64,000 nt of DNA, from IMG/VR virus record IMGVR_UViG_3300031992_003405. One strand, 5' to 3'. The translations under genes were made by a program, and so were the position numbers. This document shows positions 37,664-64,000 of this stretch, one piece after another. The notes below the pieces were generated by a model. That model was not told where the DNA came from, made no database searches, and saw nothing but the letters and a program-made list of their open reading frames with translations. This DNA is from an uncultured virus (IMG/VR IMGVR_UViG_3300031992_003405). Lineage: Duplodnaviria; Heunggongvirae; Uroviricota; Caudoviricetes. Position 1 is the stretch's first letter. Each line of letters starts with the position of its first letter.

Positions 37664-37957
37664 GTGAAAGTATTAAAAAAATATCTTTCAAAAATGTCTA
37701 ATGAGCGTTATGTAAAATGTCAAATTATTCTTAAATTAATGAAAGACGGTTATAATTATAAGCAAGCAAAACAAATGTTTCATAATACTAATATACTAGA
37801 GATAATGCAAGATAATGGACTATATTTCTTTCATCAATCATTATATGATTGGACCAAATGGATAGAAAAACAGCATAAAGATCAATATAAGAAAAATACT
37901 TGTTTTCAAATATTTTTAAATAAAGTAAATGGTATATTAAAAACAAAATTAATCTAA
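37664..37957 (+). CDS. hypothetical protein upstream of the RT
   Basis: SD GGGAG with GTG start; 97 aa; not recognisably Avd. Confidence 0.6.
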   Translation: MKVLKKYLSKMSNERYVKCQIILKLMKDGYNYKQAKQMFHNTNILEIMQDNGLYFFHQSLYDWTKWIEKQHKDQYKKNTCFQIFLNKVNGILKTKLI

Positions 37958-37981
37958 AATAAATATAAAAGGTGAATAATA

Positions 37982-39037
37982 ATTACTTTTCAAGAATTAT
38001 TTTCATATGATAATTTATATAAATCAGCCAAATTATGTTTTAATCATAAACGTGAGAAGCTTTCAATATTATTTATAGAAGCTAATTTACCGTTATATAT
38101 TAAACAATTGCAAAATGAATTGTTTAATAATCAATATTCATGTGATAAATTTATTCATTTTAGAAAATTTAATGGTAATAAATACAGAAATATTGATGCT
38201 TTATATATTAAGGATGCAATCATACATAAATGCTTATGTCGATTTTTAATTATACCTAGATTAATGAATTCATTAATTTACGATAATTGTGCCAGTCAAA
38301 AATATAAAGGTTTACATTTTGCATTTAATAGGTTAAAGAAATTTTTACATGATCATTATTGTAAATACAAAATGCAAGGTGCATATTTACTATTTGATAT
38401 TAAATATTTTTTTGAAACTATTGATCATAAAAAATTAAAAAAATTTTTAATGCCAAAAATAAAAGATAAACAGATATATAATTTATTATGCCATTGTATA
38501 GATGCTAATCAACAAATATATAAACGAACCGCGGTGGGAAATAATAAATATCAAGGTTTAGGATTAGGTACAGAATTATCACAATTATTAGCTTTAATAT
38601 ATACTTCTCCGCTAGATCATTATATTAAGGAAAAATTAAAAATAAAACATTATATACGTTATGTAGATGATAGTATTATTATACATCATGATATAGATTA
38701 TTTATATGAAATATATGAAAAAATAAATATATATTTACAAACACAATTAAATCTAAATTTAAATCAATATAAAACCAGAATTATAAAATTTGTAGATAAT
38801 AATACAATATTATTTTTAAAAACAAAATTTATATTAAGTAATCAACAAATGCATTTTAATTTTAAAAATATAAAGAAAAAAATAAAAATATGGGAAAAAT
38901 TATGGAAGCGTGGAAAAATGAATAAAGAAGATATATTAATATCATATCAATCTTGGAAATCGTATGTAATGCATGGTAATGATAATGAAAAAATACAATA
39001 TATAGATAATTTATTTAATTCAATTTTTATAGAATGA
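37982..39037 (+). CDS. reverse transcriptase, DGR-type
   Basis: The frame extends upstream of the called TTG to an ATA/ATT start after AAGGTG (ITFQELFSYDNLYKSAK). Motifs: GNKYRNI, IYDNCASQKYKG, FDIKYFFETIDH, GLGLGTELSQ (DGR-type GxxxSQ), YIRYVDD, LNQYKT, FLK. No maturase or endonuclease domain. Confidence 0.88.
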   Translation: MTFQELFSYDNLYKSAKLCFNHKREKLSILFIEANLPLYIKQLQNELFNNQYSCDKFIHFRKFNGNKYRNIDALYIKDAIIHKCLCRFLIIPRLMNSLIYDNCASQKYKGLHFAFNRLKKFLHDHYCKYKMQGAYLLFDIKYFFETIDHKKLKKFLMPKIKDKQIYNLLCHCIDANQQIYKRTAVGNNKYQGLGLGTELSQLLALIYTSPLDHYIKEKLKIKHYIRYVDDSIIIHHDIDYLYEIYEKINIYLQTQLNLNLNQYKTRIIKFVDNNTILFLKTKFILSNQQMHFNFKNIKKKIKIWEKLWKRGKMNKEDILISYQSWKSYVMHGNDNEKIQYIDNLFNSIFIE

Positions 39038-39121
39038 TTTAATAAGTTAGATTTTAAATATCTAACTTTATTTTTTATTATTTTATATTAAATAATATAT
39101 AATAATAAGGAGGAATAAAAA

Positions 39122-41662: not shown

Positions 41663-41809
41663 TTTAATCTATCCTTTCTAATATTTATTATTTATAATAA
41701 TATTATAATAAAAAATAATTAAAATTAAAATTAGGTTTAAAATTAATCATTATACTTTAATTAATAATTAAAGTATTTTTTATTATTTTATTACTTAAAA
41801 TATAAAAAA

Positions 41810-41975
41810 ACATTAATATAATGCTATTATTATTTAAATCGAATTATTTAAGTAATAATAGTTATATTAATGTAAAGTGAGAAAGATCTGTAAATAATGA
41901 TTTTTGCTTTCATAAATATATATTTATAGGCTATTGAATATATAATTATTACTCGTACTTAAATCATTAAAAAAA
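41810..41975 (+). ncRNA. candidate structured RNA/DNA element, copy 1
   Basis: Hairpin of about 60 nt (CATTAATATAA..CTATTATTATTTAAAT / ATTTAAGTAATAATAG.TTATATTAATG) followed by GTGAGAAAGATCT; conserved at 44660. Strand uncertain. Confidence 0.35.
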
Positions 41976-42238
41976 TATAATAATTTATAATTTTTAAAAA
42001 ATTTAATATTTATTAGGTACATTTTAATATTCATACATTAATTATTAATAATATTTTTCTAGCTTTAACTTATTTTTGCTATATTTATATATAAGTGAAA
42101 GAATAAATTTCAAGTGAGAAGTTTCTGAACTATAAACTAAGAATTTAAAAAGTTGTATATATAATTATTAGCAGAAGCAAAAATAGCTAAATTTTATTAT
42201 TTTAATAGATTAAAATAATAAATTGGTGATTATAAATA

Positions 42239-43774
42239 ATGAAACGATTAAGACCTAAACTTGCTAAAATTCCTATTAGGCAAATATATCAATTATGTTT
42301 AAAATATTTATATAATAATATAGATATTAATTATTTAAAAACATTTTTAAAGAAACATGATTTAAGTGAATATAAAAATGGCGATATTGATGAAATATCT
42401 ACAATAATTAGCGATTTGTGCTGGAATATTTTTAAAAATGTTATTAAAAAATATAATATTAATGAGTCTGATGGAAATAATATATATGATCAATTAATTA
42501 TTAATACTGATATATTAAATGTAATTTATAAATATAGTTATTCGAAAATTAAAGCAATCGTTTATAATAGACATATTCCTAATAATTCAATTGTGGACTT
42601 TAATAAATTATCTTTTGCTGAAAAGAAAAAAATAATACATAATATTGCAAAAGAATTAATTACAACAAATACTTCAGAATATAAGGCTAAAATTAATAAT
42701 ATTATTGAAAATATAGATGTCGATTTAATTAATCCAAATAAATTTTTGCACGATTTTATTAATCAAAGTAAAATTTTATTAAGTCGTAATTCTCAAAAAT
42801 TAATTAATAAATTAGCTAAAAATATATTAGAATATTTGTATAAAAATTTCAATTTTAAATTAAATACTAGTATAGAAGACGATATTGAATCCATAGTTAC
42901 ATCGAATATTGAAATATATATATCGATGATTTGTAATCAGACTTTTACTGATGAAAAAGAAATTAAATATTTATTAAATAAACATTTACAATATATACAG
43001 GATATTAAAAAACAAGTTATACAAGCATATAATAACGTAAGAATATGGTTAAAAAAAGATTATCCGCAATTAGAATTAAATGATTTAGATCCTGATGATA
43101 TAGATATTTATGCAGATAGTAAAAAGCCTGGTGCGGCAGCATATTGTTCTCTTAATTGGGATGGTTCTGTATCTATTAATTTAAGTAGATCGACAATTAA
43201 ACGAAGTAAAACATATATTACTACGACTATTTATCATGAATTAATTCATGCAATTAAGGGACAAGCAGATACTGCTAGAAAAATAGAAAGATTAAGAAAA
43301 GGAACTGATAATGAATTAACAGATAATGAATTTCAAGAAATAGCTCATAATGATGATATTTGGGATCAAGGCGTAGATTCAATTAGAAAACATACACATT
43401 TAGATGTCCGTGGATATAATACCAATAAAGATATCAGTAGTGCTGAACAGCAAATGATTAAATTGCAATATCCGCATGAAGCTACTCTAATTTGTTATAA
43501 TTGCGGATGGTATAAAGTATACGAAAAATGGAATAATGATTGTGAACAAGCTAGAGATAATAATTTCACTTGCCCGAGATGTCATCAAAAATATGTAAAA
43601 TTAATATCAGCTCAGCCCGGAGAAAAAGAATTAATAAATGATGCTTTGTCGCATATACACTATCAAGTATCTGAACAATTACCATATGAATCAGTGAATG
43701 AAAGTAGATTAAAGAAGAGAAAAGAATATCAAAATATAGTAAATTCACATAATAAATTAATGAATTTAATTTAA
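42239..43774 (+). CDS. SprT-like zinc metallopeptidase domain protein with C-terminal zinc ribbon
   Basis: TIYHELIHA (HExxH), a later H (AHNDDIW), CYNC...CPRC. Confidence 0.75.
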   Translation: MKRLRPKLAKIPIRQIYQLCLKYLYNNIDINYLKTFLKKHDLSEYKNGDIDEISTIISDLCWNIFKNVIKKYNINESDGNNIYDQLIINTDILNVIYKYSYSKIKAIVYNRHIPNNSIVDFNKLSFAEKKKIIHNIAKELITTNTSEYKAKINNIIENIDVDLINPNKFLHDFINQSKILLSRNSQKLINKLAKNILEYLYKNFNFKLNTSIEDDIESIVTSNIEIYISMICNQTFTDEKEIKYLLNKHLQYIQDIKKQVIQAYNNVRIWLKKDYPQLELNDLDPDDIDIYADSKKPGAAAYCSLNWDGSVSINLSRSTIKRSKTYITTTIYHELIHAIKGQADTARKIERLRKGTDNELTDNEFQEIAHNDDIWDQGVDSIRKHTHLDVRGYNTNKDISSAEQQMIKLQYPHEATLICYNCGWYKVYEKWNNDCEQARDNNFTCPRCHQKYVKLISAQPGEKELINDALSHIHYQVSEQLPYESVNESRLKKRKEYQNIVNSHNKLMNLI

Positions 43775-44018
43775 TAATAGATCTAAATATTCAACAATTA
43801 TGATGTAAATACAACCAATATCTTAATAAGTTTAATTAATAATAATTAAAAAAAGGAATAATTACTTTGCTAAAAGTATAATTATTCCTTTTTTAATTTA
43901 AAAAATTTTATATATTAATTTTTACTAAAAATTAATATTCTTAATAGTTCCATAAGCTAAAATATTTTCTAGATACTATTTTAACATAAAACTTAATTAA
44001 AATAATCTATATTTATAA

Positions 44019-44525
44019 TTAAATTTGTGAAAGCAATAATTTAGAATTTATTATATATTTTAATTGATTAAATTGTTTAATATATTTATTATTAATTCTT
44101 TTTTGACAATATTTATATAATTTATAATTTGATGTATGCAATATATATAAATATTTGTTATTAGAATACAAAGCTAATTGTAAATCTTCACAAATAATAT
44201 AATCATTAAGCATATTAAACTGTTCCATATTGCAAGTATTAAAATTCTTTATAAGCATACAAATATTTCTACTACCATATTTAATTGGTAAAATTAATAT
44301 ATAATTATTAAAATTCATATAATTATTTTCATTAATTATATTTAACATTTTTGTATTACAATTAAATTGTTTTTCACAAATATATAATTGTGTTATTTTT
44401 TTCACCAAATTTAATTTTATATCAAAAAATAAATAATTATGTACATAACATAAATGTTCATGAATTAATTTGAAATTATCACATATTGGTAATTTTAAAT
44501 TGATTATAATTCCATTATTATTCAT
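44019..44525 (-). CDS. hypothetical protein, paralog family F
   Basis: Duplicate of 41156..41662; SD AAGGAG. Confidence 0.78.
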   Translation of the reverse strand: MNNNGIIINLKLPICDNFKLIHEHLCYVHNYLFFDIKLNLVKKITQLYICEKQFNCNTKMLNIINENNYMNFNNYILILPIKYGSRNICMLIKNFNTCNMEQFNMLNDYIICEDLQLALYSNNKYLYILHTSNYKLYKYCQKRINNKYIKQFNQLKYIINSKLLLSQI

Positions 44526-44659
44526 TTTAATTTCTCCTTTATAATAATTATTATTAATAATATTATTATAAAAAAATTTTTAAATTTAAATTAGATTTAA
44601 AATCTATCATTATATTTTAAATAATTAAAAATACTTTAATTATTTAAAATATAAAAAAA

Positions 44660-44845
44660 ACATTAATATAATGCTATTATTACTTAAATCAAATTATTTA
44701 AGTAACAATAATTATATTAATGTAAAGTGAGAAAGATCTTTAAAAATGATTTTTGCTTTCATAAATATATATTTTATTTATATAATATATAAATTGGCTA
44801 TTATAATATATAATTATTACTCATACTTAAATCATTAAAAAATAA
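44660..44845 (+). ncRNA. candidate structured element, copy 2, directly bordering the cassette array
   Basis: Same hairpin plus GTGAGAAAGATCT (44727-44739) as the 41810 copy. Confidence 0.35.
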
Positions 44846-44889
44846 ATTATATTTCTTTTTTTATTAATTTATGCACATATAATATTTTT

Positions 44890-47800
44890 TAGAATAAAAC
44901 CGACAGACACACTCGCTGCGGTCGAAGAAGAATATTGTCCGCGATAAAAATCTTCCTTAGGTTGCCAATAATACCATGTTCCCCAACCTAACTCATATTC
45001 GGCCGAACCAATACGAGTAATACTCGGAATCCTTTTTATAAAAACTATATATTAATAAATTATGTTTATTAAACCGGAAGGATATAATCCATTAGCACAA
45101 TCAGGATCTTTAAAACCAACGCCAAAGTTAGCAAGCCATTTCTTAAGTATACACCATTTATATTCAGTCGAGTACATACCCGGAAATTTTTTACATAATA
45201 CAACAATTAAATAAAATTATTTATTTTTTTAAAAGTTTTTATTGTAAATTAATAAATATAAATCGAGAGTTATTTGTCAGGCTTTACGATAGCCATCACA
45301 TCCATCAAAATCACCATAGTTGCTACAAGCGTAAAATATATATAAATTACTTCCGCCATAATTTTCATACTTAGCATGCGGAGAAATTTATATATGATTT
45401 TGAATAAAGTCGAAGGGATTACTTGCACCAGGATATTCAGGAGCTGCTCCATAACGATACACGCAATAATCAGGAATCCGTGCATCAATGATTGACATAA
45501 CGAAGTGTTCATCATAACCCGCATACGATGATCTTTTAATTAAATATATTTTTAAAATTTAGAAAATATAATTAAATTTTTTAATAAAATTATGGGCATA
45601 CTTAGCAATATTAGAGCTTTCAAAAGAATAAAATTTAGACTGACTTTGTTGCCCAGGTGGATAGGAAAGTTTAAAACAATTTGTCAGTGTATAAATCGGC
45701 TGTGGAGATTTTTATATTAATTATATATAAAATTTAATAAAAAATTAAAGCAAACTACTATATAAAATTGATATATATATTTAGAATAAAATCGCGATTA
45801 TCAAAACTATTAATTGCTTGTCGGCCATATTTATCAACTGTCCACTCCATATCAGAGCTCGTAGCAGATAAAGTTGTCAGAAATAAATTCGGACGTGTTG
45901 TACCAGTCGTCTTAACATACAGAGATCTTTTCTATTAATAAATATTTATATTTATAACGATATAACTAAATTTAATAAATAAAAAACTTATTTAAAAGTA
46001 TCATTATAAAATTTATTTAAAAACTTGAAATAAAACCGCTGAATTTATCTGTGATGTATAATAATCAGATGATTCTATGTGATACTCACGATCGTGATAA
46101 CCATCTCCTAATGTACAATACGTTCTTTGTGATAGGTCTTCGAACTTTACTAGAGATTTTTTCTATTAATATATACTTATATTTATATAATTAGATTTAA
46201 TAAATAAATTGTATTTAATTACATTTAAAAAATAAAAAACTTATTTATTAAAGTATTATTATAAAATTTATTTAAAAATTTAGAATGAAACCGTAAGAAT
46301 AGCGATTCCAGGCATATTCAGGACTCGGAGCACCGCATCTATTCCAATTTCCATCTTGATTATTCCAAATATGCCTGCCGAAGCCCAATATCGATATTAG
46401 TCGACCAAATTGATCAGGATTAGCGGCTTGCGGAGATCTTCTCCACTAATAAATTAAATTAAATGTAATAAGATTAAATATATAAAATTGAAGTAAACTT
46501 CTATACAAGATTAAATATACAAGATTGGAACAAAACCGTAAGATGTCGAACAATAATACCAGGCGATAGCGCCCATTTCACCGTCTGATAGACCAGGACC
46601 AAGTACCAACAGCATTAATTGACTATCTTTCGGATCTCCATGCACCAAACATCTTTCCAGTTAATAAACTAAATATATTTAAATATAATAAAATTATATT
46701 CTAATAAAATTTAAAATAAAATCGTCAGAAGCTGATGCATATTGCCAAAACCATGAGCTATGCCCTCCATAGTAAACGTTGCTTGTATACGGCCATTGAT
46801 CAGCTTCTATAAAACTTATATCATAATTACACCTTTTGTGCAGAGATCTTTCCTGCCAATAAATTAAATATAACTAAAAGTAATAAAATCAAATTCTGAA
46901 AAAATTTAAATATATAAGATTAAAATAAAAACCGTTACTCTGTATAATATCGGCATGTACAGGGATCCCAATCGCGGGTGCCCAATCTGCCGTAGAACTA
47001 GATACTCTTAAACCTGATTCGGCAGGCTGTGTTACGTCATGGTTGGACCACACATTCGGAGATCTTTTCCATTATAAAATTTGAAGCATAACCGTAACTA
47101 AATATAATATAGTCTTTATATGCATATGTAGAACCTGGAATTACTGAATTACCTTGTATAGTTATTAAATTCCAAAATGGAGTCCAATCAACACTACCGA
47201 ATCTCGGAGATCTTTCCTATCAATGAACTAAATATAATAAAATTGAATTCTAATGAAATTAAGTATATAAGATTAAAGTAAACTTCTATATAAAATTAAA
47301 ATATGCAAAATTGAAGTATATAAAATAGAAGTATACAAGATTGGAACAAAACTGTAATTCCGCTTGCCATAATTAACTGGCTGCATATCATTTGTCCAAT
47401 CAGATGTGCCGTGCAAAAAACTGGCTAGCCAGTTTCCATGAGCGTTGTGATCTTGAGATCTTTCCCGCCAATAAATTAAATATATTTAAATGTAATAATA
47501 AAATTCAATTATATAAGATTGAAGTATATAAAATTGAAATAAACTGTTATATAAAATTTAAATATATAAGATTAAAGTAAAACCGAAATTAGCATAAGTT
47601 CATTGATTTTCAGCTAACCAGTTTTTATAAGCATTATCTAAACATACCGTACAATTATATATATTATGATTACTAGATGATTTAGACGGAAAGTTTTTTA
47701 CTAATGAACTAGATATATTAAAATGTAATAATAAAAATGAATTTTACAAAATTTAAGTATGCAAGATTGAAGTAAACTTCTATATAAAATTGAAATAAAA

Positions 47801-50800
47801 TCGTTATCACGATAGGAATACAAACTTCCATATTTCCAAGGCTCTATTATACTAGTTATATATATAAACCAATGTCTATAATTATTGTAAATACCATTAA
47901 TTGGATCATGCATGACCGGAGATCTTTTTCATTAATAGATTGAGTGGATTTAAATATAATGATATAATTTAATTGTACAAAATTTAAATATACAAGACTA
48001 AAATATATAAAATTAAATATACAAAATTGGAATAAACTTCTATATAAGATTGGAATAAAACCGAATACGTGATAAGGCTGTCCGGCAGTATGAACAGTTA
48101 AATCTCCACTGTTATATGGATATTGACGACCTAAATTAGATATACTTTGAAAATGTATTCCCCAAACAGTACCCGGAAATCTTTCTTATCAATGAATTAA
48201 ATATAATTAAATGCAATAGAATTTGGAACAAAACCAAAAAATACCATTATTCTCACGGGCATTATGGTTGCCAGTCCAAGGATGTAAGCTGTAGACTTCC
48301 AGCCTACAAGGTATTCGTACATTCGCATCTGTGTACACATTTGAAGATTTTTCTTACTAATGCTAATATATATTAATATAAAATTAAAAATTTTAATACA
48401 ATATAAATATATAAGATTTAAATATATAAGATTAAAATATACAAGATTATAACAAAACCGAGACTAGTGAAAATAGGATAATATTCAGGATATGTTGTCT
48501 GAGTCCAAACATAATTCGTCTTACTAGTACCATCATATATATTCTGAAAAGTAAATATTGTACCATACCAGTCTTCATATTTCGTACGTAGAGATTTTTC
48601 TTACAAAATGTTAATATATATTAAGATAAAATTAAAAAATTTTAATATAATTTAAATATACAAAATTTAAGTATACAAGATTGAAGTAGACTTCTATATA
48701 AAATTGGAACAAAACTGGTAGAAGTAAAGCAAGACGTAGCACCAGGATCTTCATAACCGTATCCCATAGCAGAACCCCATCGCTTTAAAAAGCACCAGTC
48801 AGTATATATGTCTAATCCCTGATCCCATAGTTTAGGTACTAACGGAAATTGTTTCATTAATAAATTAAATATAACTAAATGCAATAAAATTAAATTCTAC
48901 AAAATTTTAATATATAAGATTAAAGTATACAAGATTAGAATAAACTCCTATATAAAATTTAAATATACAAGATTAGAACAAAACCGTGTACAGTTGCCGC
49001 GTATTCAAAATCAGTCCATCCTTCAACAGTGCCTTCATCGCGATTCGCGGGTATAAAATGATAATACCATTTCGAGGTCGACACCCAATACGGCTTTAAC
49101 GGAGATCTTTCTCATTAATAAATTAAATATATTTGAATGTAATAAAATTGAAATATACAAGATTAAAGTATACAAAATTGGAACAAAACCGAAAGATAAC
49201 GATACTAGGTAATGCGCGTACGCATATCCTGCCGACACTTCACTATTATACGCATCGGTACCATATACTTTGCAAAACTGTATGGTATAGCCAACGTTCT
49301 TAACTGTCATCAGAGATTTTTCTTACCAATAAACTAAATATATTTAAATATAATAAAATTAAGTTTTAATAAAATTTAAATATACAAGATTAAAGTATAT
49401 AAAATTGAAACAAAGCCGCAATACAATGCATCTGTTGCATAACATGTGGCGCCATGAAAGTTGTAAGAATAATCCATATTGAATGATGCAACAATACACC
49501 AGGTACAATGATTGTTCGTTGCATGTGGATTATAATTTTGAACCGGAGATCTTTCCCACCAATGAACTAGATATATTTAAATATAATAATAAAATTTAAT
49601 TCTAAAAAATTTAAGTATATAAGAACGAAATATATAAGATTGAAATAAATTGCTATATAAAATTTGGAACAAAACCGAATGAATAATAAGAATAATCAGA
49701 ACACGAACGAGTGAATAATTTAAGATGAAACATCATATATTCAGATGTGTGACCGCCTTCTTTGCTCGGAGATCTTTCCTACCAATAAATTAAATATAAC
49801 TAAAGGTAATAAAATTAAATTTTAATAAAATTTAAATATATAAAATTTAAATATACAAGATGAAAGTAAATTTTTATATAAATTTGGAACAAAACCGAGA
49901 TTATAACGACCTAATTGCACAGGATAAGTATACGAAAACTCAGCATAATATACCATATAGTGGCCGTCATTCCATTCCGGATCCCAGACTTGATTCAATA
50001 TCCACCCGTCTCGTCCTTCTACCACCCCTTCGCCATGCTGGCTCACGCTCGGAGATCTTTCTCACCAATAAACTAGATATAACTGAATACAATAAAATTT
50101 AAATATATAAAATTGAAGCAAGCTTCTAATAAAATTTGGAACAAAACTGTTATCCCAATATACATAATTAGAGCAAGTCTCATTGCCAACGCGAAAATCG
50201 TACGGTACTAAATAGCATACCGTACTATGATCGCCTTGGTGGCTTGGAGATTTTTCTTGCCAATGAATTAAATACAATTAAATGTAATAAAATTGAATTC
50301 TATAAAATTTAAATATACAAGATTGAAACAAACTTTTATATAAAATTGGAACAAAACCGCTATTACAATCAGTTTGTGTTGCTTGCGTCAAACGATCAGC
50401 ATAATCAGTTGTGTTAAACAAATGCCCATCATCTGGCACACTCATAAAATTATATACATCGCCTTGATACCAATGCTCATACTGTGTATACGGAAATTTT
50501 TCTTACCAATGAATTAAATATAATAAAATTGAATTCTAATAAAATTTAGAACAAAACCGTTAGATTGTTTCACATCCCACGAGTTTTCTGGAAACCAAAT
50601 ATGATTAATACTGTTTGTGCCTAACGACTCGATGCACAGAAATTGCGTTGCCTTTGCTGTATGCGGAGATTTTTCTCATCAATAAATTAAATATAACTAA
50701 ATGTAATAAATTGAATTCTAATAAAATTTAAATGTATAAGATTAAAGTATATAAAATTGAAGTAAACTTCTATATAAAATCGAAACAAAACTGATTGTAA

Positions 50801-53800
50801 TACTTACTGGATATCTATCAGATTCTACCAATATGTTTTTGTTTAAAATTGGGTATGGACCAAATTGCCCAATCATACATGCATCTTGCCCTTCGCCAAC
50901 AGCCGGAAATCTTTTCCATTAATAAATTGAGTAAATTTAAATATAATAATAATACAATTTAATTATATAAAATTTAAATATATAAAATTAAAGTAAACCT
51001 CTATATAAAATTAAATATACAAGATTGGAACAAAACCGATATTATCAATGGGATAGCTAGTATGACCGACAACGTCGCTAACATTACCATTCGATATATC
51101 CCTCCAATGAAAATATCCAACCGAGAGAAACCATACTTCAGCAGTAGATTTATTCGGAGATCTTTTCCATTAATAAACTAAATATATTTAAATATAATAA
51201 AATTCAATTTTAAAAAATTTAAATATATAAAATGGAAATATATAAAATTGAAGTAAACTTCTAATAAAATTTGGAACAAAACCGAGTTTCGTAAGGACAC
51301 ACCCGCCACCCGAAAGTATCGCTTCCTCAAATGTACTTAGGTCAACCATACAAGTGACATTATACACGTGCACACCATTTCCAACATACACCTTAACTTG
51401 AGCTGGAGATTTTTCCCATCAATGAAATATAACTAAATACAATAAAATTGAATTTAGAAAATTTAAATATACAAGATAAAAGTATATAAAATGGAAGTAT
51501 ACAAGATTGAAGTAAACTTCTATATAAAATTAAATATACTAGATCGGAACAAAACCGTAAGAATGAGTGCATCCTTTAACTTGCCCTGGATGAAAAGCTT
51601 GGTGCCAGGCATTGCCAGTGTCTCCTATCTCAATATAATAATGTTCAATATAGTTTTGGTACCAATTATATACCGGAGATTTTTTCCATTAATGAACTAG
51701 ATATATTTAAATGTAATAATAAAATTAAATTCTAATGAAATTTAAATATACAAAATTAAAGTATGCAAGATTAAAGTGAACTTCTATACAAGATTGAAAC
51801 AAAACCATCTGTGTCATAACACAGTATAGAAGAGGCATAATCAAAACGAGGAGATGCATTATTATGTTGATGTCCTACATTAGTAACTACGTTTTCCGTA
51901 AACCGACGAGACGCATCTGCACCCGGAGATCTTTTCTACTAATAAATTGAATATATTTAAATATAATGATAAAATTTTAATAAAATATAAATATACAAAA
52001 TTTAAGTATATAAAATTGACATATACAAGATTGAAGTAAACTTCTATGCAAGATTAAATATACGAGATTAGAACAAAGCCGATAGATTTACGAGGTACTG
52101 TATAAGTCCAGCCATTCGTACCATATTCAGATAGTTTATGTTCTAAATCATATGTCATAGGCCAACAGTCACTAATATATCCTCCCCAAACAGGTTCATA
52201 ATAATTAAGTTGATGATTCTTATACGGAGATCTTTATATAAAGAATTCTTTGTAAAAGTATTGATATAAAAAATTATTGATATAAAAAATTATTGATATA
52301 AAAAATTATTCAGATTAATATAAAATCGAGTGAAAAGACAGCAGGATCAAGCATCCTGTTGAACCAGTTATCATCTAAGCCATAGCTGGCGTATAAATAA
52401 CATTTATCTTTTTCCGCATATGCACTTGCTCGATTCGGAGATTTTTATAAAAAAAACTAAACCCGAAAGAATATTGACATTCTTTCGCACTCGATACTGA
52501 CCAAACGCCGTCTTTTCCTAGCATTAAATTACATTGTGGATCCCAAGATGCATTTGCATGGGACGGATATCTTTCCCATCAATAAATTAGATATATTTAA
52601 AATTGAGCATTAAATTTCTTTGGAACAAAACCGGCATTACCAAAAGCTCCATGATTCCATGAATGTCTGTTATCACAGGCATAAGTTGCAGACGATGTTA
52701 TTCCCTCAAATGCCGTCCGATTAACATCTGTATAATACCAGCCGAGAACTGGAGATTTTTTCTGTTAATAAATTAAGTATAACTAAATACAATAAAATTA
52801 AATTCTAATAGAATTTAAATATACAAGATTAAAGTACACTTCTATATAAAATTAAATATATAAGATTAGAGTAAACTTCTATATAAGATTGAAATAAAAC
52901 TGTGAGATTCACTTGCAATAGTGAAATCGGGATCAAGAAAATAACTACCTTTAACATACTGATATTTTTTCAAGAATCCAAATACATATAATTTATCATA
53001 TGCTGATGTTTCTATTATTGCTGGATATCTTTCCTATCAATAAATTAAATATAACCAAATGTAATAAAATTTAAATATACAAAATTAAAGTATATAAAAT
53101 TGAAATAAAGCAACATCCTTTATTTTTCCATAATTGAGTTCGCATGTTGTCCACTGAATCTCCTCTGTCATCTACGCTGCAAAACTCAGTTAACACAATC
53201 TGCTGTCCTAGATTATTGCGTTTGCTGTGTGAAAATCTTTCTCATTAATAAATTAAATATATTTAAATATAATAATAAAATTTAATTATACAAAATTAAA
53301 GTATACAAGATTGGAATAAAATCGACGGAAAGATTAACATAATGGCTCACAGCATCGTATATGTCACGTGCAGAATCTAAACAATTCAAAAAACTGACGT
53401 CTGAATGTCCAACATGCTGTAATTTACTCGAAGATCTTTTTCACCAATAAACTAGGTATAACTAAATAACAATAAAATTCAATTATATAAGATTGAAGTA
53501 TATAAGATTAAAATAAACTGTTATACAAAATTTAAATATACAATATTGGAGTAAAACCGAGAGTCATCGCCTCCTTGTGCACACCAAAAGCAAAATCAAT
53601 ACAATTGCGTCCATCTGTAACTATCCAGTCAAATATTACCAGTGCGGCTTCCCCATTCTTATACGGAGATCTTTCCCGCTAATAAATTGAATATAACTAA
53701 ATATAATAGAATTTTATTAAAATTTAAATATACAAAATTTAAGTATATAAGATTGGAGTAAGCTCCTATACAAGATTAAATATACGAGATTGGAACAAAA

Positions 53801-56800
53801 CCGTAAACTTTGTCAGTACACAACAGGGATCTAAACTGACTACCGCGCTCAGAGATCACACAGTATGTATTCTTACCATCGTAAGTTTCGTCAACCGTGG
53901 CAAGGAGGCCCGGAAATCTTTCACACCAATAAATTAAATATAACTAAATGTAATAAAATTGAATTCTAATAAAGTTAAAGTATGCAATATTGGAACAAAA
54001 CCATAATGAACATACGCCCAGTTATAACTAGTAAATCTTCAGTCAAACGCAAAAACAAATGGAACAAAACCGTCATTATATGTTACATCTTCCCAAATAG
54101 ATTCCGTATCGTAATCATAACTACTCTCATATTGCCAGTCAACACCGGCATCTCCAACCACTGTCCATGTATACCTTCTGTGTGTTAACCAATACTCAGT
54201 ACCTGAAGATATTTCTCGCTAATAAATTAAATATAATTAAATGCAATAATAAAATTAAGTATTAAGTTTCTTTAGAATAAAACTAACTTCCATAGCAAAC
54301 TCAACACCAATGTATGCATTACTGTGTGCTTCCGTATCACTAAACAAAACACCAGTCTAAGGCGCAGTTGTGTCATTTTTAGTCGAAATATGTACTAGAG
54401 ATCTTTCTTATCAATAAATTAGATATATTTAAATGTAATAATAAAATTTAATTCTAAAAAATTTAAATATACAAAATTAAAGTATACAAGATTGAAATAA
54501 ATTTCTATATAAGATTAGAATAAAATTGTTGAAATCACTTGTAAAGGCATATCCAGGTATGCCAGGAATAGAAACATTAGCCGAAGGATCTTGTACGATA
54601 CAAAAAATATTATTTCTATATCGTGAAAATTTATCTATCTTTAACAGAAATCGTTATCGCTAATAAATATTTATATTTATAAAGATACAATTAAATTTAA
54701 TAAATAAATTATATTTAATGATTTTTAATATATTTAAAAAACAAAAAATTTATTTAAGAATTTGGAACAAAACCGACAGTCTCTGCACTAGCTTTGTAGA
54801 ACCAGCCATCGTGTCCATAATCTCCAATATTAGTATATACACAGGTAAATTGTTCGCTAAGTCTCAATCCATTTAAAGGCTCTAAGTAACCTATATTCCA
54901 GTTCCTATATAGAGATTTTTTCTCATAATGAACAAAATGCAATAAAATTGAATTATAATAAAATTTAAGTATACAATATTGGAACAAAACCGACAGAACC
55001 GGCTGCAACATAATTCTCAGATTGTATAGGAAATAAAGAAGGAAATGTGTTTCTCGTTCCTAGAAAAGTAAAACAAATTGTTGCATACTCATAGTTAATT
55101 GTCAGAAATCTTTTCTACCAATAAATATTTATAAAGATATAATTAGATTTAATAAATAAATTATATTTAATCATTTTTAATAATATTTATTATTTTACAA
55201 AATTTGGAACAAAACCGAGAGAATGATGACACCACGAACATGCACGATTACCGAAACGATCACTAGCGAATGATATTAATTCAAATCTATTTGCTGTCTC
55301 TAGACTCGGAGATCTTTCCCATTAATAAATGAAATATATTTAAATACAATAAAATTGAATTCTAATAAAATTTAAATATACAAAATTAAATATACAAGAT
55401 TGACGTATACAAGATTGGAACAAAACTGTGATTATGATAAGTCCAAGCATTACCACAACTACCGAGCGGGTTACCATCACCCCCACCGCATACGTAAATA
55501 TACCTCTCTTTGGCCCAGCCGCTGGTTGCAGATTTTCCCGGAAATCTTTCTTATTAATAGATTGAGTAGATTTAAATATAATGATACAAAATTAAAATAT
55601 ACAAGATTAAAATATACAAGATCGGAACAAAACCGAAACTAGCAGACATTGCCATTATTGATGACACTCGATCTGCATTGAACATGATTCCCTCAAAGTC
55701 GACATTATAGCTCATCTTATATCCTAAATTCGCATTGTACATCGACTGGCTCTTGCTCGGAGATTTTTCCTACCAATGAATTAAAATATATTTAAATGTA
55801 ATGATAAAATTGAGTGCTAAGTTTTTTTAGAATAAAATCGTGAGAATAAGACGCCTCATAAGAATCCCAGGGAGAATCTTCTGCATCAGCAGCAGCCTTG
55901 CCTCTACGTCCTAGGCAAATACCTTGAGTACGTTTCTCTACTTCCAGAGATCTTTCCCACCAATGAATTAGATATATTTTAATATAATAATAAAATTTAA
56001 TTATATAAGATTAAAGTATACACGATTGAAGTAAACTTCTAATAGAATTTAAATATACAAAATTGAAATAGAACCGTCACTAAAATAAAAATGCTCAGTA
56101 CTCGCAGTAGTATCATAATCATATGACGGATCGTATGTCCATCTCGGACCAGCATCGCCCACACTAGTACATTGGTCTATAGTCCGTGCATTTAGAGATC
56201 TTTCTTGTCAATAAATTAGATATATTTAAATACAATAAAATTAAATTTTAATAAAATTTAAATATACAAGATTGGAACAACAAAACCACTACTGCAATGG
56301 GGATGAAAACTTCCATATTCCCAAGATTCTGTCATACTAGTTATATAGATAAAAAAATGCTTAAAATTATTATAAATACCATTAATTGGATCACGTATAA
56401 CCAGAAATCTTTTCTATTAAAAGATTAAGTGACTTTAAATATAATGATACAAAATTTAAATATACAAGATTGAAGTAAACTTCTAATAAAATTTGGAAAA
56501 AAATGGTATTATCATCATTATCACAATGGCCTGAGTTGCCTGACCAAGGAGGTAAACCAATAACTTGCAGCCTTTTAGGTAGTCGTACATTCACATTAAC
56601 GTATGGGCTTGGAGATCTTTTTGACTAATATTAATATAAAATTAAAAAGTTTTAATAAAATATAAATATATAAAATTTAAGTATACAAGATTGAAATAAA
56701 TTACTATATAAAATTAAATATACAAAATTTGGAACAAAACCGCAACAATAATGTGCCCTCACACACCCAGGTAAACAAAATGGATATTCAAAGGAAGGTG

Positions 56801-59800
56801 CTTGTCGCGTCATTACACACCAGTCTTCATAACTGCTGTAGCCCTGATCATATCTTATTGGAACACGCGGAGATCTTTCCCACCAATGAACTAGATATAT
56901 TTAAATATAATATAATGAAATTAAATTCTAAAAAAATTTAAATATACAAAATTGAAGTAAACTCCTATATAAAATATAAATATATAAAATTGGAACAAAA
57001 CCGACATCTCTCCATACATCACACAAATGTCCCCATGTATCTTTTGGCCATTTCGTGCTACCATAATCCAAGATACCATCTTCTAACACAAACATAATTG
57101 TAGTGTCGTACTTAGGAGTCGGAGATCTTTCCCACTAATGAACTAAATATAATTAAATAACAATAAAATTGAATTATATAAGATTAAATATATAAAATTT
57201 AAGTATACAAAATTGTGAACAAAATTGAGACTAATATATGCATAATTCATGTGCGAAGCGACGGGAAATTTAGAAGGCCATACGCCAACTTCTCCTAGCA
57301 TTAAAAACGTAATATCTCCCGAGCTAAATGTAGGGCATGGAGATCTTTTTCATTAATAAACTAAATATATTTAAACATAATAATAGAATTCAATTCTAAA
57401 AAAAATTGAAACAAAATCGAAAGAAAAAATTGCGAAATCACCACAACTTGACTCAGCGAAAACCTCATACCTGTGCGCCTCACACAAATAATTTTTATAC
57501 TGATCACCGCTATTAACTCCCCGATTTCCATCATATCTTGTCGGAAATCTTTTTTTACCAATAAATTAGATATATTAAAATGTAATAATAAAATTCAATT
57601 CTAATATAATCGAAATATACAAAATTAGAATATATAGAATTGAAGTAAATTTCTATATAAGATTAAGTATACGAGATTGAAGTAAACTTCTAATAAAATT
57701 TGGAACAAAACCGAGACTATGCAATTTATGATCTATGTGATAGATCCACTTGACTTCGCCAGAAAATTCTTGATTACCAGTCAAGCCAAATTGTCCAATG
57801 TTAGAATCAGAGTGCGTGTGATTCGGAGATCTTTCCTAATAATGAACTAAATATAACTAAAGATAATAAAATTAAATTTTATTAAAATTTAAATATACAA
57901 GATTTAAGTATATAAGATAGGAACAAAACCATGGACCATCGAACACCAGTTCCCTCCTTCCATAAAATTTACCTGAAAATCGACATAGCTCGCATTCGGA
58001 GGTATTGAATACCCGGAAAGCTTATACGAAAATCTTTCCTACTAATAAATTAAATATAACTAAATGTAATAAAATTTGGAATAAAACTGTGAATTTTATG
58101 ACAACGCCAGTTACTATGTTCGTCTCCAGGAAAGCGGTTCTCAATATACGTACCAACGACGTATAAATACTGCATCGGAAACGACGCATCTAATTCTCCA
58201 GCTATTAGAAATCTTTTTTATTAATAAATCTAGCATATTTAAATACAATTTTATTATTATATTTAAAATCTTTTTTAGAACAAAAACGATAGCAACAAAA
58301 GTATGTATACAGTCGCGCAGCCCAGGCTTATTGCTTTTACCTTGTGTAATGGCATATTAACCTTCGTAAAGCGAGGAGATTTGCAAAAATTTTTCCTACT
58401 AATATTAATATATATTAAGATAAAATTAACAAATATTTAATAAAATATAAATATACAAAATTTGGAATAAAACCGCTTGGCCTATCAGCATACAATGAGC
58501 TTGCGTTAGTCCAACCGCCGTACTCCCACGGGTGCAAAAAACATGGTTTATTATGTGACTGACTCTCTTTACTCGGAGATCTTTCTCATCAATGAACTAA
58601 ATATAACTAAAGATAATAAAATTTAAATATATAAAATTTGGAACAAAACCATAAACATCGATGGTATCAATTGCAGTCGCAAAATAACGCCCTGTAGTAC
58701 CACGATTACTTGAGTAAGTAAAACGCTTATAAGGTTGCATATCTAAAGAGTCATTTGCGACATCTGGATATACGCCCAGAGATCTTTCCTTCATCAATAA
58801 ATTAAATATAACTAAATATAACGAAATACAATGAAATTGAATTTTAAAAATTTAAATATACAATATTGAAATAAACTTCTATACAAGATTAAATATACTA
58901 GATTGCAATATGCAAGATTGGAACAAAACCGCTTTTCCAACCCGCAGGGCCATACGGATAACTACAATACAGGTTCACGGCAACGTCAATCTTTCCATCG
59001 TTCCTCGTCGCACCTACAACGAAATCAAAACCTATGTCACTCGCCCCGAATTCAGCGACCCAAGCCTTCGTCGGCGATTTTTTTCATCAATGAATTAAAT
59101 ATATTTAAATGAATTTTAATAAAATTTAGACTATAACCCTCAACACAAGATGCATAAATGTTAATAGCCCTAGCGAAATCGTTGTAAGAACTGTATCCTA
59201 CTTCGCAAAATCTTAGACTTGTATCAGCTTTAGATACGTCGACTAATGTTTTCGGAGATCTTTTTTTACCAATAAAATATAATTAAATACAATAAAATTC
59301 AATTTTAAAAATTTAAATATACAAGATTGAAATAAAACCGTGACATTGATAGCATGCGCCCCCAACGCTAATTCCACGCTCATAATTCGAACTTAAGCCT
59401 CCACCACCGTAATAATACACAAGCAACCACCACATATCTTGCCCGGAACTACCAAGTTCCGGAGAGCTTTTTCACCAATAAACTAGATATAACTAAAGAT
59501 AATAAAATTTAGAATAAAACTGAGAATATGACTACATACCTTATACTGTCCGGGACGATAATCTCCTTCCCACGCATTGCCACTATTTGCGATTGGGATA
59601 TACATGGTGCCTCGAATATTGTCACCATAATTACAGTCCGGAAATTTTTTACATCAATAAAATATAATTAAATACAATAAAATTAAATTTTAAAAAATTT
59701 TAATATACAAAATTAGAACAAAATCGACGCCATTATCGGTCCAATTACTCACGGCGTCGAAGATGTCACATGCTGAATCTTAACATATAAGACCACTGAC

Positions 59801-62800
59801 TTCATAATGGGTAACGTGTTGTAATTTACTCGGAAATCTTTTCCTATTAATATGAATATATATTAATATAAAATTAAAAAATTTTAATAAAATATAAATA
59901 TACAAAATTAAAGTAAACTTCTATATAAAATTAGAATAAAACCGATATTATTCCACGCATTATCAGCATTATCAACCCAGTTTAATAACGATACATTAGG
60001 AAAATTTGGCGCTGCATTAAACACCCGACTTCTCACTACAGTACTATTACCAGACCATTGATTCGAAGATCTTTCTCATCAATAAATTAAATATAATTAA
60101 ATTGAATTCTACAAAATTTAAGTATACAAGATTAAAGTAAACTTTTATATAAATTGTAAGTATACAAGATTATAACAAAACTGTGAATATTATTTACATA
60201 ATAACAATCAGGCAAATAATAGTAGTTCTTTAAAGGCGTTTTTATTCCATACTTTTCTAACATACAAAAAGCATATTCCCAACTACCTACATTTAGAGAT
60301 ATTTCCCGTCAATAAATTAGATATATTATGTAATAATTAAATTAAATTCTAATAGAATTTAAATATATAAGATTACAGTATGCAAGATTAAAGTAAATTT
60401 CTAATAAAATTTGGAACAAAACCGTTAACACGCTGAATTCCCTCGTAATTAGTGTTTGTCCACCCATACCCATAGGCATGGCCGTACCATGTCAGTAAGC
60501 AAAATCCCCAACTGGGGGAAGGGTGATTCGGAGATCTTTCCTGCTAATATATATTAAGATAAAATTAAAAAATTTTAATAAAATATAAATATACAAAATT
60601 TAAAGTATACAAGATTAAAATATATAAGATTGAAGTAAACGTAAACTTCTAATAAAATTTGGAACAAAACCGATGTATACATTCGCGTAATAAGAGCCAC
60701 GCAGACCTGGCTCATTGGTCTTCCCTTGTGGCCCGCAATATTGCCCGACATAGAGTCCGTTTTCCCTCGGAGATCTTTACCACCAATAAATTAAATATAT
60801 TAAAATGTAATAATAAAATTCAATTCTAAAAATTTAAATATACAAGATTAAAATAAAACCGTGAATATAAATTGCCCTGTGATGTTGACTGGTTACCGGG
60901 AAGGTAGAAGGAAAATGGTTTGCTTCACCTAGAACACAATAGCGATTGTATTCTGCGAGCTCGTATCTTGCCGGAGATCTTTCCCACTAATAAATTAGAT
61001 GTATTTAAATACAATAAAATTTAATTTTACAAAATTTAAATATACAAAATTGAAGTATACAAGATTAAAGTAAGCTCCTATATAAAATTAAATATATAAG
61101 ATTGGAACGAACTCGGCGTTATGTGATGGGATGGTAGTCCATCAATCACTATATATGCCGAATCCTTGATTAAATTCTACCGGCACGCACGAAAATCTTT
61201 CCTACCAATAAATCTAGTATATTTAAATACAATGATAAAATTTTATTTTACAAAGTTTGGAATAAAACAGACATCTTCATCTGCATATATACGATAGGAC
61301 ATACACCTGCCATCTACACATAAAGTACCATAATCCCAAGCATCGATCTCTGGCGCATAACTAGATTCATAATATTTTTGTGTTGGAGATCTTTCCCACC
61401 AATGAACTAAATATAATAAAAATAAATTATGATAAAATTAAAGTATACAAGATTAAAGTATATAAAATTAAAACAAAATCAAGACTATCAATACCGTTTT
61501 CTCCATATCCACTTCTTGGGCCATCGCTTGCATACCAAATAGATGTGAAATTACTTAGACCATAATTACCATAACTATCTTTATACTTTACCAGAGATCT
61601 TTTCTGCTAATAAATTAAATATATTTAAATACAATAATAAAATTGAATTTAAATATATTTAAATATATAAGATTAAAGTATATAAAATGAAAGTATACAA
61701 GATTGAAATAAACTTCTATATAAAATTAGAACAAAACCAAGATCACAAAAGCTGTCTTCACTATGATCGCCTGCCACACCAGATTTATGTGTCATGATAG
61801 TAGACATTTGTGCATAATATCCCTTGCCTGGATATGACCCACTCACTTTAGTCGGAGATCTTTTCTATTAATAAATTAAATATAATTAAATACAATAAAA
61901 ATTGAATTTTAGCAAAATTTAAGTATACAAGATTGAAGTAAAACTTTTATATAAAATTAAATATACAAGATTGGAATAAAACCGCGAGTTGTAGTGTGTT
62001 GATCGTGAAGATGATCATCAATCGATAGGTTCGATGTACCTACACTATGTAGCTCTGCGCCCCACACTTGCAGATGGCAATAATGACTCATTGACGAATT
62101 GTTAGCCGGAGATCTTTCCCACTAATATTAATATATATTAAGATAAAATTAAAAAATTTTAATAAAATATAAATATACAAGATTGGAATAAACTTCTATA
62201 TAAAATTAGAACAAAACCGTAAGATAGAAATACTCGGTAATTCGCGTACGCGTATCCTGCCGACACTTCACTATTATACGCATCAGTACCATATACTTTA
62301 CAAAACTGTATGGTATAGTTAGCGTTCCGAACTGTCATCGGAGATTTTTCCCACTAATGGACGGAGTATAACTAAATGTAATAAAATTCAATTCTAATAG
62401 AATTTAAATATACAAGATTAAAACGAGCTTCTAATAAAATTTGGAACAAAACCGTTACTAGCCCACACAAAACTAGTCTTGGCAATAACATCGCTAACAC
62501 TGCCGTACGATACCAGCTGGTAATTAAAGTATCCCACAGATGTAAAACATGGGTTGTTATCCTGAACCCACGGATTGAGTGACGGAGATCTTTCTCACCA
62601 ATAAGCTAAATATAACTAAAGATAATAAAATTAAATTATACAAAATTTGGAACAAAACCGGCACAAAGGACGTCCATCGTATATGACGGTTTCTCAAAGC
62701 CAAGTCCAAGGACGTCACCCCTACGATGTAACCAGCACCAGTTACCGTACTTCTGCAACCCCTCGTCCCAAGTCACTGGCACATGCGGAGATCTTTCCTA

Positions 62801-64000
62801 CCAATAAACTGAGTATAACTAAATACAATAAAATTGAATTTTAACAAAATTTAAATATACAAGATAAAAGTATATAAAATGAAAATATACAAGATTGAAG
62901 TAAATTTCTATATAAAATTAAATATACAAAATCAAAGTATACAAGATTGGAACAAAACCGTAACTACTATTTACTACAGCATTACCACTACTGCCGAGCG
63001 GATTATTGTCACTACCATCGCTTACGTATTCATCTCTCTCTAAGGGCCATCCTACGTATGCATTATATTTACCCGGAAATCTTTCTTATTAATAGATTGA
63101 ATAGATTTAAATATAATAATACAAAATTAAAATATACAAAATTGAACCAAAGCCGTATGAATCTGTAGTTCTCCAGATGCCGTTGTCCGTGAGATCAATA
63201 TCATAATTTTGTATGCCAATAAATTCAATCTAAGTCTTGTATCCCAATGCCGGGCGAATTAGTGCCATTCGGGCCCTTATGCAGAGATCTTTCCCACTTA
63301 TAAACTAAATATATTTAAATGTAATAATAAAATTTAATTCTATAAAATTTATAACAAAACTGAAGCTATTGTATGAAAACTGTATCTCATTTTCATATCG
63401 ACTAAAACCTTGCCTGCCAGTATCAGAAGTAACGGATGCATATCCGTTAATTTCGCATCGCTCACACCCAGCGAAAAGTAACCTGAATCTGTCTTCGACG
63501 GAGATATTTCCTACTAATAAAATATAACTAGCTAAATACAATAAAATTAAATTTTACAAAATTTAAATATATAAAATTAGAGTATATAAAATTGAAGCAA
63601 ACTTTTATACAAGATTAGAGTAAACTTCTATATAAAATATAAATATACAAAATTTGGATATATAAAATTGGAACAAAACCGTTAGATGTAAAATTGTATT
63701 TCCAGTTACCTAAATTGTCTATACCATGACTAATAAGAGCACCACCGTTTCCCGCAATCATTATCACCACCCACTGCTCATCATGGTTGTTTTGTACTAC
63801 AGTCAAAGATCTTTTCCACTAATGTTAATATAGAATTAAAAAATTCTAATAAAATTTAAATATATAAAATTAAATATACAAGATCGGAACAAAACTGCCA
63901 GACTTATGTACGTTCCATTCATTACTCGTATAGACACCATGTAAGTCGGAAATGCGCAACCCGCCATCATCAAGGAGTCTATCCAGAGATTTTTTTCACC
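44890..64000 (-). repeat. array of about 87 DGR-variable-region-like cassettes (WWERSP-variable-GFVP) with AT-rich spacers; continues past the window end
   Basis: Plus strand unit: TTGGAACAAAACCG, then about 90-160 nt of unique, GC-richer sequence, then CGGAGATCTTTCCCACCAATAAA, then an AT-rich spacer. Minus-strand translation runs in frame from RSP to GFVP in the units translated by hand (e.g. 49190, 51550, 56995, 58465, 62650). Confidence 0.92.

Follow-up and report, generated by a model that had tools for sequence, protein, structure and literature searches.

A tandem array of about 80 silent, frame-kept cassettes resembling retroelement variable regions in an uncultured virus

The 64,000-nucleotide (nt) sequence of an uncultured virus of the Caudoviricetes (IMG/VR record IMGVR_UViG_3300031992_003405), here called the window, was found to end in a tandem array of about 80 short cassettes, each consisting of a coding core between two recurring anchors. 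The cores carry selected coding information, and the units that hold them cannot be translated where they stand. Sequence comparison indicates that the cassettes are very probably homologues of the segment that forms the variable region (VR) and the template repeat (TR) in the DUF6273-type class of targets of diversity-generating retroelements (DGRs). A reverse transcriptase (RT) of DGR type is encoded in the same window. The cassettes are most likely a stored library of alternative tips for a target protein.

Results

Anatomy and extent of the array

The array lies on the minus strand at 44891-64000 and continues past the window end at 64000. A first-pass annotation, made from the sequence alone, had described it as about 87 units with a period of about 220 bp at 44890-64000. 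The array itself was confirmed by anchor matches, by clean units and by the kept frame, and the period computed from the first and last 5′ anchors was close to the earlier figure, at about 226 bp. The count came down to about 80 in the window, and the span is to be read with a degenerate last 1.6 kb or so (44891-46500) and an overrun at the other end. The parts of the array referred to below are:

44891..64000, minus strand: tandem array of about 80 cassettes, from anchor and profile matches
62647..62807, minus strand: example unit, with its 5′ anchor at 62807-62786 and its 3′ anchor at 62659-62647
62785-62660, minus strand: core of the example unit, 126 nt, HVPVTWDEG...VLCA
44891..46500, minus strand: degenerate distal end, with three low-score 5′ matches, one 3′ match and irregular units

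The sequence GGTTTTGTTCC, allowing at most one mismatch, gave 42 matches, all of them between 46527 and 63896 and on the minus strand, where shuffled sequences lead to an expectation of 0.4. The 5′ anchor GGAAAGATCTCCG, with up to three mismatches, was found 69 times on the minus strand, always within the array, and once on the plus strand. Profile searches of the array yielded 80 matches to the 5′ anchor and 87 3′-anchor-like matches, some of the latter being decayed relic copies within spacers (AAGTTTACTTCAA). All array 5′ anchors and all 42 near-exact 3′ anchors lie on a single strand. Clean units, running from 5′ to 3′ anchor, numbered 64, with anchor-to-anchor lengths of 51-153 nt.

Read along the minus strand, a unit starts with an AT-rich noncoding 5′ flank of about 45-65 nt that ends in ...TTATTGGTGGGAAAGATCTCCG. 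The coding core of 51-153 nt and the 3′ anchor GGTTTTGTTCCAA follow, a stop comes 3-5 codons further on in most units, and a variable AT-rich spacer made of 15-mers (TTGTATATTTAAATT) completes the unit. The spacers measure 38-160 nt and their lengths are not multiples of three. GC content is 18-22% in the first 44.8 kb or so of the window and 28-32% in the remainder; the rise is due to the blocks of 51-153 nt, which are richer in GC and are separated from one another by very AT-rich DNA. Core GC ranges from 0.27 to 0.53 as against about 0.18-0.22 in the remaining window, in agreement with the first-pass description of GC-richer cores. A weak climb in core GC toward the upstream array end was also seen (0.38 to 0.43; rho 0.27, p 0.03; 46500-64000) and is consistent with younger units nearer to the presumed target gene.

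Coding content of the cores

The frame is kept between the anchors, as had been proposed, with core length a multiple of three in 61 of the 64 clean units, and the three peptides given earlier as examples were reproduced (rows 62785, 57119 and 51673). In the anchor frame the 61 in-frame cores held 3 stops in 2307 codons; frames 2 and 3 held 105 and 270. About 86 in-frame TAA or TAG codons would be expected from the codon-position composition, and 2 were observed. The outcome that the first-pass annotation had named as speaking against its reading, random lengths modulo three together with stops at chance level, was thus not found, stops being depleted about 40-fold. The frame was open from ERSP to GFVP in 57 of the 64 units, and a stop or frameshift was present in seven.

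Most cores cannot be aligned to one another (mean column identity 13%). The earlier statement that each core is unique does not hold, however, since about a dozen paralogous pairs or triplets are present, with 45-88% nucleotide identity. The paralogues differ in length by whole codons (117/114, 114/111, 117/132 and 135/144 nt), the sole exception among those compared being the frameshifted pair 56609/48341 (104 versus 106 nt), and their mismatches are even across the three codon positions. The ratio of nonsynonymous to synonymous substitution rates (dN/dS) was computable for 24 of the 30 best pairs; it was 0.29-0.88 in 22 and above 1 in two, with dS often above 1. Values of 0.29-0.88 in most of the paralogous pairs mean that the coding content is under selection. 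Several pairs are colinear between the 63-56 kb and the 55-47 kb parts of the array, which suggests an old segmental duplication.

The cores differ in composition from the host genes, with many Y, S, G, N, D, T and W residues and few K, I and L, and GC at fourfold-degenerate sites is 0.35 in the cores versus 0.14. A Pfam search with 57 cassette peptides returned nothing consistent.

Silence in place and behaviour of the anchors

The units were described as silent at first pass, and this is borne out: they contain no in-frame start codon after the conserved in-frame 5′ stops, and are for that reason untranslatable in place. At codon −12, 40 of the 64 units have TAA or TAG. TGG, TGA, TAG and TAA occur in roughly equal numbers at the two W codons of the 5′ anchor, and about 40% of units have TAG or TAA there; that these codons are often stops had been pointed out before. 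Beyond GFVP, a stop is met in 3-5 codons in most units (after ...GFVPILYI or ...GFVPNFV, for example), and a few remain open far into the spacer.

The conserved 5′ flank reaches about 45-65 nt upstream and is noncoding in appearance. The A/T positions of the anchors are fixed in 58-64 of the 64 units, while G/C positions show G-to-A or C-to-T changes in 20-40% and radical codon changes (S→F, P→L and G→S) are found in 20-35% of units. Radical drift of anchor codons is expected if the core alone, and not the arms on either side, is transferred. Synonymous sites of the cores are much less well kept than the noncoding flanks, which speaks for a role of the flanks in cis that goes beyond mere homology. 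Protection of the cores thus acts at the protein level, while the anchors behave like DNA or RNA signals under AT-biased decay.

An AGATCT palindrome lies within the 5′ anchor. No covariation between the two anchors was detected within units or across spacers (G/A versus C/T states, 12 tests, all p > 0.17). Promoter-like sites (44, with 50 expected) and terminator-like sites (8, with 3.7 expected) were uninformative. An array of known RNA genes was considered and rejected, as Rfam gave no family at gathering score and ARAGORN no tRNA.

Correspondence with the variable-region brackets of related retroelements

In Roseburia phage Shimadzu (LR596903.1) the DGR target is a tail fibre, whose C-terminal DUF6273 domain ends ...GRC-YWW-SASVRSGGSTNCVFVNVSGHSSNWGASGGL-YVPV-CFRIDEA followed by the stop, and the TR spans exactly YWW to YVPV. 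Comparable brackets were found at the loci of other relatives, which are numbered with the prefix L. The VR of L129 reads IYWLRSP-YVSGSNLVRFVLTDGSLYSYYAYHGYD-GVRP, then CFRI, and others read YWWLRTP-...-GVSP (L134), YWTMSP-...-GVRP (L164) and YWTFSP-...-VAP (L151). The window arrangement YWWERSP-core-GFVP has the same brackets and spacing as these VRs. A motif-level correspondence of the brackets was recorded for Shimadzu, L126, L129, L134, L151 and L164, and the relation between anchors and DGR brackets suggested in the first-pass annotation is upheld in particular by Shimadzu, L129, L134 and L164.

Similarity extends into the cores. Many have an inner hydrophobic strand followed by G (IMFVLEDG, for instance, compared with VRFVLTDG), and cassette 57119 aligned with the L129 VR over RSP...FVLxDGxL (E 0.002, pairwise). 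The pairwise scores are modest and the alignments fall in the right place. DUF6273 is described in PMC10743442 as C-type-lectin-like, with a VR that forms a beta-hairpin and surface loops. One core stands out as the most template-like:

59944..60063, minus strand: core of cassette 60063, with AAT or AAC at 10 of 40 codons (array mean 2.7, standard deviation 1.8)

Its sequence YWWERSSNQWSGNSTVVR aligns with the translated TR of L134, YWWLRTPN--SGNSYNVR, with 11 of 18 positions identical (E 0.001, pairwise), and cassette 60063 may, with low confidence, be put forward as a candidate for the true TR.

The reverse transcriptase

37976..39091, plus strand: DGR-type RT with LGTELSQ and YVDD and a probable ATA start, 5.8 kb from the array and on the opposite strand

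By its sequence the RT belongs to the DGR clade. LGTELSQ and YVDD are presumably the DGR signature motifs, and the best phage matches include Roseburia phage Shimadzu (32% identical), Faecalibacterium phages and ANMV-1, the last two of which we take to be DGR-bearing. The PADLOC RT profile scored 1.8e-24, and Pfam RVT_1 gave no match at E 0.1 with this AT-biased sequence. In public proteins the nearest relatives are 70-90% identical and lie on short contigs; more distant relatives, at 24-36% identity, are ordinary DGR RTs. No close relative emerged when viral contigs were scanned with the RT as a single protein. The assignment of a nearby RT to the DGR type made at first pass is thus supported both by the best phage relatives and by the TR/VR pairs at the loci of relatives described below.

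A TGA codon at 39035-39037 in the RT frame falls where close RT relatives end. On sequence grounds TGA appears to be a sense codon in this element, because open reading frames (ORFs) become joined when table 4 is applied and TGA is read through within conserved paralogues; the read-through indicates table 4 or 25. Codon counts were TGG 89 and TGA 30 in the host ORFs, and TGG 73 and TGA 1 in the array cores.

Small tandem precedents at the loci of relatives

A single BLAST-based method for TR/VR pairs was applied alike to the window and to the loci of relatives. An adenine-biased TR/VR pair beside the RT was identified at 37 of the 51 genome loci and at 68 of the 80 viral ones (105 of 131 in total), with the TR typically 200-600 nt upstream of the RT. 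Among the 105 loci with a pair, just two copies, the TR and one VR, were present in 97, three copies in six and four in two.

Five loci hold extra units with TR-type flanks in tandem.

L164, 470-1000: Mycoplasmatota metagenome-assembled genome (MAG); target VR followed by a TR-flanked cassette with 70% identity to the TR and by two identical TRs, with a period of 169 nt
L192, 9117-9740: IMG/VR contig; two TR-flanked cassettes between VR and TR
L144, 100-470: Acholeplasmataceae MAG; two TR-type units directly after the target stop codon, one codon apart in length
L166, 9150-9450: one extra TR-flanked cassette, as also in L175

In the extra units of L164 and L192 mismatches fall at TR adenines in 18/33, 22/36 and 20/30 cases, where the adenine content of the TR is 25%; non-adenine drift is also present and the frames are open. 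The extra copies of L166 and L175 have only 8 mismatches to the TR, spread across all four bases, and are plain drift. TR duplicates with VR-like sequence thus exist in ordinary DGRs, looking like templates that have been overwritten, and literature searches found no description of such adenine-mutated, TR-flanked units. By analogy, the array of the window looks like the outcome of the same process carried some 25-fold further, to sequence saturation.

Search for a TR/VR pair and a target gene in the window

No adenine-specific TR/VR pair was found by either of two custom adenine-wildcard scans, one comparing 29000-46000 with the whole window and the other comparing the array with itself. Among 3800 candidate pairs in the window, the BLAST-based test gave 10 short AT-rich spacer matches, with 5-10 mismatches each, and no TR/VR pair. 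The usual TR site upstream of the RT is empty, with a 97-amino-acid (aa) ORF extending to 37957 and the RT beginning at 37976.

Related arrays were also sought in other collections. An exact 34-mer had no match in viral contigs, and the exact two-anchor pattern was absent from genome contigs and from viral contigs. A degenerate version of that pattern, which was too loose, gave single chance matches in the metagenome collection and six chance matches in viral contigs. Among public sequencing runs, two sheep gut metagenome runs from a single sample contained 0.94-0.95 of the sampled words and may be where the sequence comes from; a third run, from a different study, contained 0.42 and an RNA run 0.05.

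Neighbouring genes and other features of the window

Three features stand close to the RT or to the array:

37664..37957, plus strand: 97-aa ORF in the usual position of Avd, ending 19 nt before the RT
44019..44525, minus strand: 168-aa ORF directly downstream of the array and encoded on the array strand
44727..44739, plus strand: GTGAGAAAGATCT, an exact 13-mer of a 5′-anchor variant, inverted, with a second copy at 41877-41889

The 97-aa ORF shows a weak match to a MutS_I-like small protein of L144 (E 0.006) and no similarity to Avd or bAvd, those of Shimadzu (Avd) and L144 (bAvd) included. The 168-aa ORF has a paralogue at 41156-41662 on the minus strand (71% identity); its structure model, with a pLDDT of 43, was unusable, and a search of the Atlas gave no match of 0.9 or more. 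Each copy of GTGAGAAAGATCT lies about 200 nt upstream of one of the two 168-aa paralogues and is joined to no coding frame; no copy is expected by chance, and the two could be a shared protein-binding site. A neighbouring 511-aa ORF gave weak leads only, to phage proteins and SprT-like.

A gene module is duplicated at 30949-34136 and 36380-40588. Its 270- and 280-aa proteins are 49% identical, the opposite-strand proteins of 200 and 197 aa are 51% identical, and the upstream proteins of 557 and 387 aa have a common C-terminal domain (E 5e-8). Only the second module copy contains the RT and the 97-aa ORF, as an insertion. An IscB-like protein (RRXRR plus HNH) at 3-1130 overruns the window start, and two TnpB (OrfB_IS605/Cas12f-like) genes are located at 27642-29018 and 34798-36345, the second apparently split. 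Repeat families of 50-160 nt (TTTCGCGAAACATATTTATATCTTAATA...) occur at 11750-13015 and 16780-18490, inverted around 13105-16650 with several copies per side, and the segment 13105-16650 may be invertible or mobile. Three paralogous family-9 glycosyltransferase-like genes (4883-6082, 8276-9502 and 25317-26528) and a four-member family of about 280-290 aa (6356-7240, 7285-8157, 22528-23367 and 24270-25100) were also noted. For most ORFs of the window neither Pfam nor PHROG gave a match.

Discussion

Proposed mechanism

Selected, frame-kept cores in units that cannot be translated imply that the information in the cassettes reaches an expressed gene. From this and from the relatives we infer three things, namely transfer to an expressed gene, the existence and place of that target, and mediation by the RT. 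Each unit would be one complete equivalent of the VR of a C-type-lectin-like (DUF6273-type) binding protein, between two short TR/VR homology arms, and one cassette at a time would be copied into the VR of the expressed target gene. The most probable place for that gene would be past 64000, next to the upstream end of the array, as suggested by L164, L144 and L192, in which the extra cassettes follow the target gene. Cassette RNA would be reverse-transcribed by the RT at 37976-39091, and the cDNA would replace the VR via the shared arms, possibly with adenine mutagenesis. Variation would then come in two tiers, a wholesale swap of scaffold and a subsequent point hypermutation.

RT-templated transfer is favoured because the RT has no TR of its own and the window contains no TR-like DNA other than the array, and also because the precedents have TR-type flanks and the noncoding flanks are conserved beyond what the arms need. 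We therefore prefer, tentatively and with somewhat less than even confidence, to see the array as an expanded library of cassettes of TR lineage that act through the RT as donors for a target outside the window. In a bolder form, the element would be a DGR with about 80 or more alternative templates, in which the tips of a receptor-binding protein are swapped in length and scaffold and hypermutated at adenines, and in which successful variants may be written back into TR-type copies as memory. This bolder form is possible and, in our judgement, less likely than not. As background, a TR that is given a VR-type end becomes a recipient.

Several observations weigh against an RT-templated library. 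The array lies 5.8 kb from the RT on the opposite strand, and no Avd was recognised among the window ORFs. No adenine-specific relation was found between any two cassettes, and at fourfold-degenerate sites A and T are lowered about equally, not adenine alone. Cores other than 60063 are not rich in AAT or AAC, unlike usual working TRs, and profile-profile similarity to the VRs of the relatives is weak and confined to the 5′ bracket. The commonest 16-nt 5′ anchor is kept in only 5 of 64 units and the commonest 13-nt 3′ anchor in 24 of 64, so that many units may be poor donors. Spacers of 62 nt are too short for a long structured RNA element after each unit. The target is likewise elusive: the ORFs of 1-44800 have neither anchors nor a DUF6273 match, longer proteins sharing words with the cassettes gave no target candidate, and an exhaustive profile search of 1.84 billion representatives returned only two array ORFs and one unrelated repeat protein, these protein searches being low-powered in that member cassettes score 37-44 bits against their own profile.

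Alternative explanations

The lack of an adenine signature between cassettes and the position of the array on the strand opposite to the RT would be accounted for if the cassettes were donors for homologous gene conversion independent of the RT, which would only fine-tune the expressed copy from a TR outside the window. Head-to-tail partial copies with open frames and common short flanks, devoid of promoter and start, are what such a system would show, and the raised synonymous-site GC of the cores (0.35 versus 0.14) could reflect frequent conversion. We nevertheless regard this explanation as unlikely, though it deserves serious weight. Arms of about 13-23 nt, often mismatched, are very short and make a poor substrate of RecA type; conversion has no need for a strongly conserved noncoding 5′ flank of about 45-65 nt; the empty TR site by the RT goes unexplained; and the extra cassettes of the relatives have TR-type and not gene-type flanks. 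An improbable account is that the array is a functionless by-product, in which duplicated TRs were overwritten by self-homing mutagenic cDNA or by VR-to-TR conversion and are now decaying. The TR-flanked, adenine-mutated extra units of ordinary DGRs (L164 and L192) fit this account, as do the G-to-A and C-to-T decay of anchor G/C positions in 20-40% of units, the degenerate distal 1.6 kb, the weak drop in core GC toward the distal end (rho 0.27, p 0.03) and the 7 of 64 units with a stop or frameshift. It is opposed by a frame kept in 61 of 64 units, with 2 TAA or TAG codons against about 86 expected, although synonymous sites are saturated, by a dN/dS below 1 in most pairs, and by the absence of a common non-adenine scaffold, which means that the cores are not simple derivatives of one TR.

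The layout of repeats and unique cores, the AGATCT palindrome, the two inverted 13-nt copies of an anchor variant outside the array and the TnpB and IscB-like genes might also bring to mind a CRISPR- or integron-like array with a site-specific recombinase, the exons of a giant gene or many small genes. Explanations of this group are highly improbable. A CRISPR array was rejected since the cores are coding, with a frame that continues that of the repeats, and the only related genes are those for TnpB and IscB-like proteins, with no cas among the scanned ORFs. The first-pass annotation had also reckoned with cores taken from foreign DNA, and 60000-64000 matched no phage or plasmid. An integron array was set aside in the absence of an attC-type pairing signal and of an integrase in the scanned ORFs, and an anchor-anchor stem or attC-like hairpin because no anchor covariation was seen under either pairing model. 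A shufflon, or invertible tail-fibre segments, would not have all units in one orientation with all anchors on one strand, and no invertase or other recombinase was found among the scanned ORFs. Exons of one gene are contradicted by spacers that are not multiples of three and by neighbouring genes with bacterial ribosome-binding sites, and independent small genes by the lack of a start codon or usable upstream frame and by the stops upstream.

Significance

In the present understanding of DGRs, one template rewrites one or a few VRs at adenines only, and the scaffold and length of the tip are fixed. If the RT-templated library proposed here is true, the accessible sequence space would also include wholesale changes of scaffold, and a retroelement, or recombination acting on its repeats, would maintain a heritable repertoire; a second tier would thereby be added to a known hypermutation system. 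The small adenine-mutated cassettes in ordinary DGRs suggest how such a store may originate, by duplication of templates that are then overwritten, an origin of which, to our knowledge and from our searches, there is no earlier description. If templated by the RT, the array would be a natural multi-template diversifier and of interest for directed-evolution tools.

Literature searches on DGRs with silent cassettes, tandem arrays or multiple TRs found nothing comparable. In PMC6642488, multiple VRs are given for 28.6% of DGRs, together with one case of two TRs and one atypical case of six, and its text, supplements not included, reports no silent-cassette array. The first-pass remark that no system with dozens of templates is described agrees with these searches and with the 105 loci of relatives, which hold at most four copies. 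The DGR-cassette interpretation, which offered templates, conversion donors and an archive as possible roles, is supported in part, by the brackets, by the silence of the units and by the DGR-type RT.

Comparison with known systems

Integron and CRISPR arrays resemble the window in their long series of unique segments, in one orientation, between a conserved repeat of variable length. They differ in that the cores of the window share their frame with the repeats and correspond by homology to one protein segment, and that the window shows no attC-like pairing, no integrase, no cas and no foreign match (60000-64000).

Silent-cassette conversion systems include pilS/pilE in Neisseria, vls/vlsE in Borrelia, the vlhA pseudogenes of Mycoplasma synoviae and the pseudo-V genes of the chicken. 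In these systems promoterless, 5′-truncated and frame-kept copies lie in one direction beside a single expression site, at which segments are replaced wholesale, and in the chicken pseudo-V conversion is combined with point hypermutation. The window has in common with them the tandem promoterless partial copies with kept frame, whereas its units are only about 40 codons long, its arms are 13-23 nt, a DGR RT is present and no expression site was seen.

A canonical DGR of the BPP-1 type, for which Shimadzu was compared directly, likewise has an RT of the DGR clade; the YWW...YVPV boundaries of the Shimadzu TR and VR match the YWW...GFVP brackets of the window, and the TR, like the cassettes, is an untranslated copy of the variable region. 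A canonical DGR has one TR 200-600 nt upstream of the RT and one or two VRs, whereas the window has about 80 diverged cassettes of varied lengths, in an array on the opposite strand and 5.8 kb off, with no adenine-specific TR/VR pair and no recognisable Avd. The tandem-TR DGRs (L164, L144, L192, L166 and L175) have the look of a precursor on a small scale. Their TR-flanked units, placed after the target gene, run head to tail as the window units do, and some of their cores are VR-like, with adenine mutations and drift, yet open in frame; their units number only two or three and align to the TR at 70-93% identity, in contrast to about 80 units with mostly unalignable cores. A multi-template DGR of the kind considered here would, by analogy, be the prokaryotic or phage counterpart of pseudo-V gene conversion combined with somatic hypermutation.

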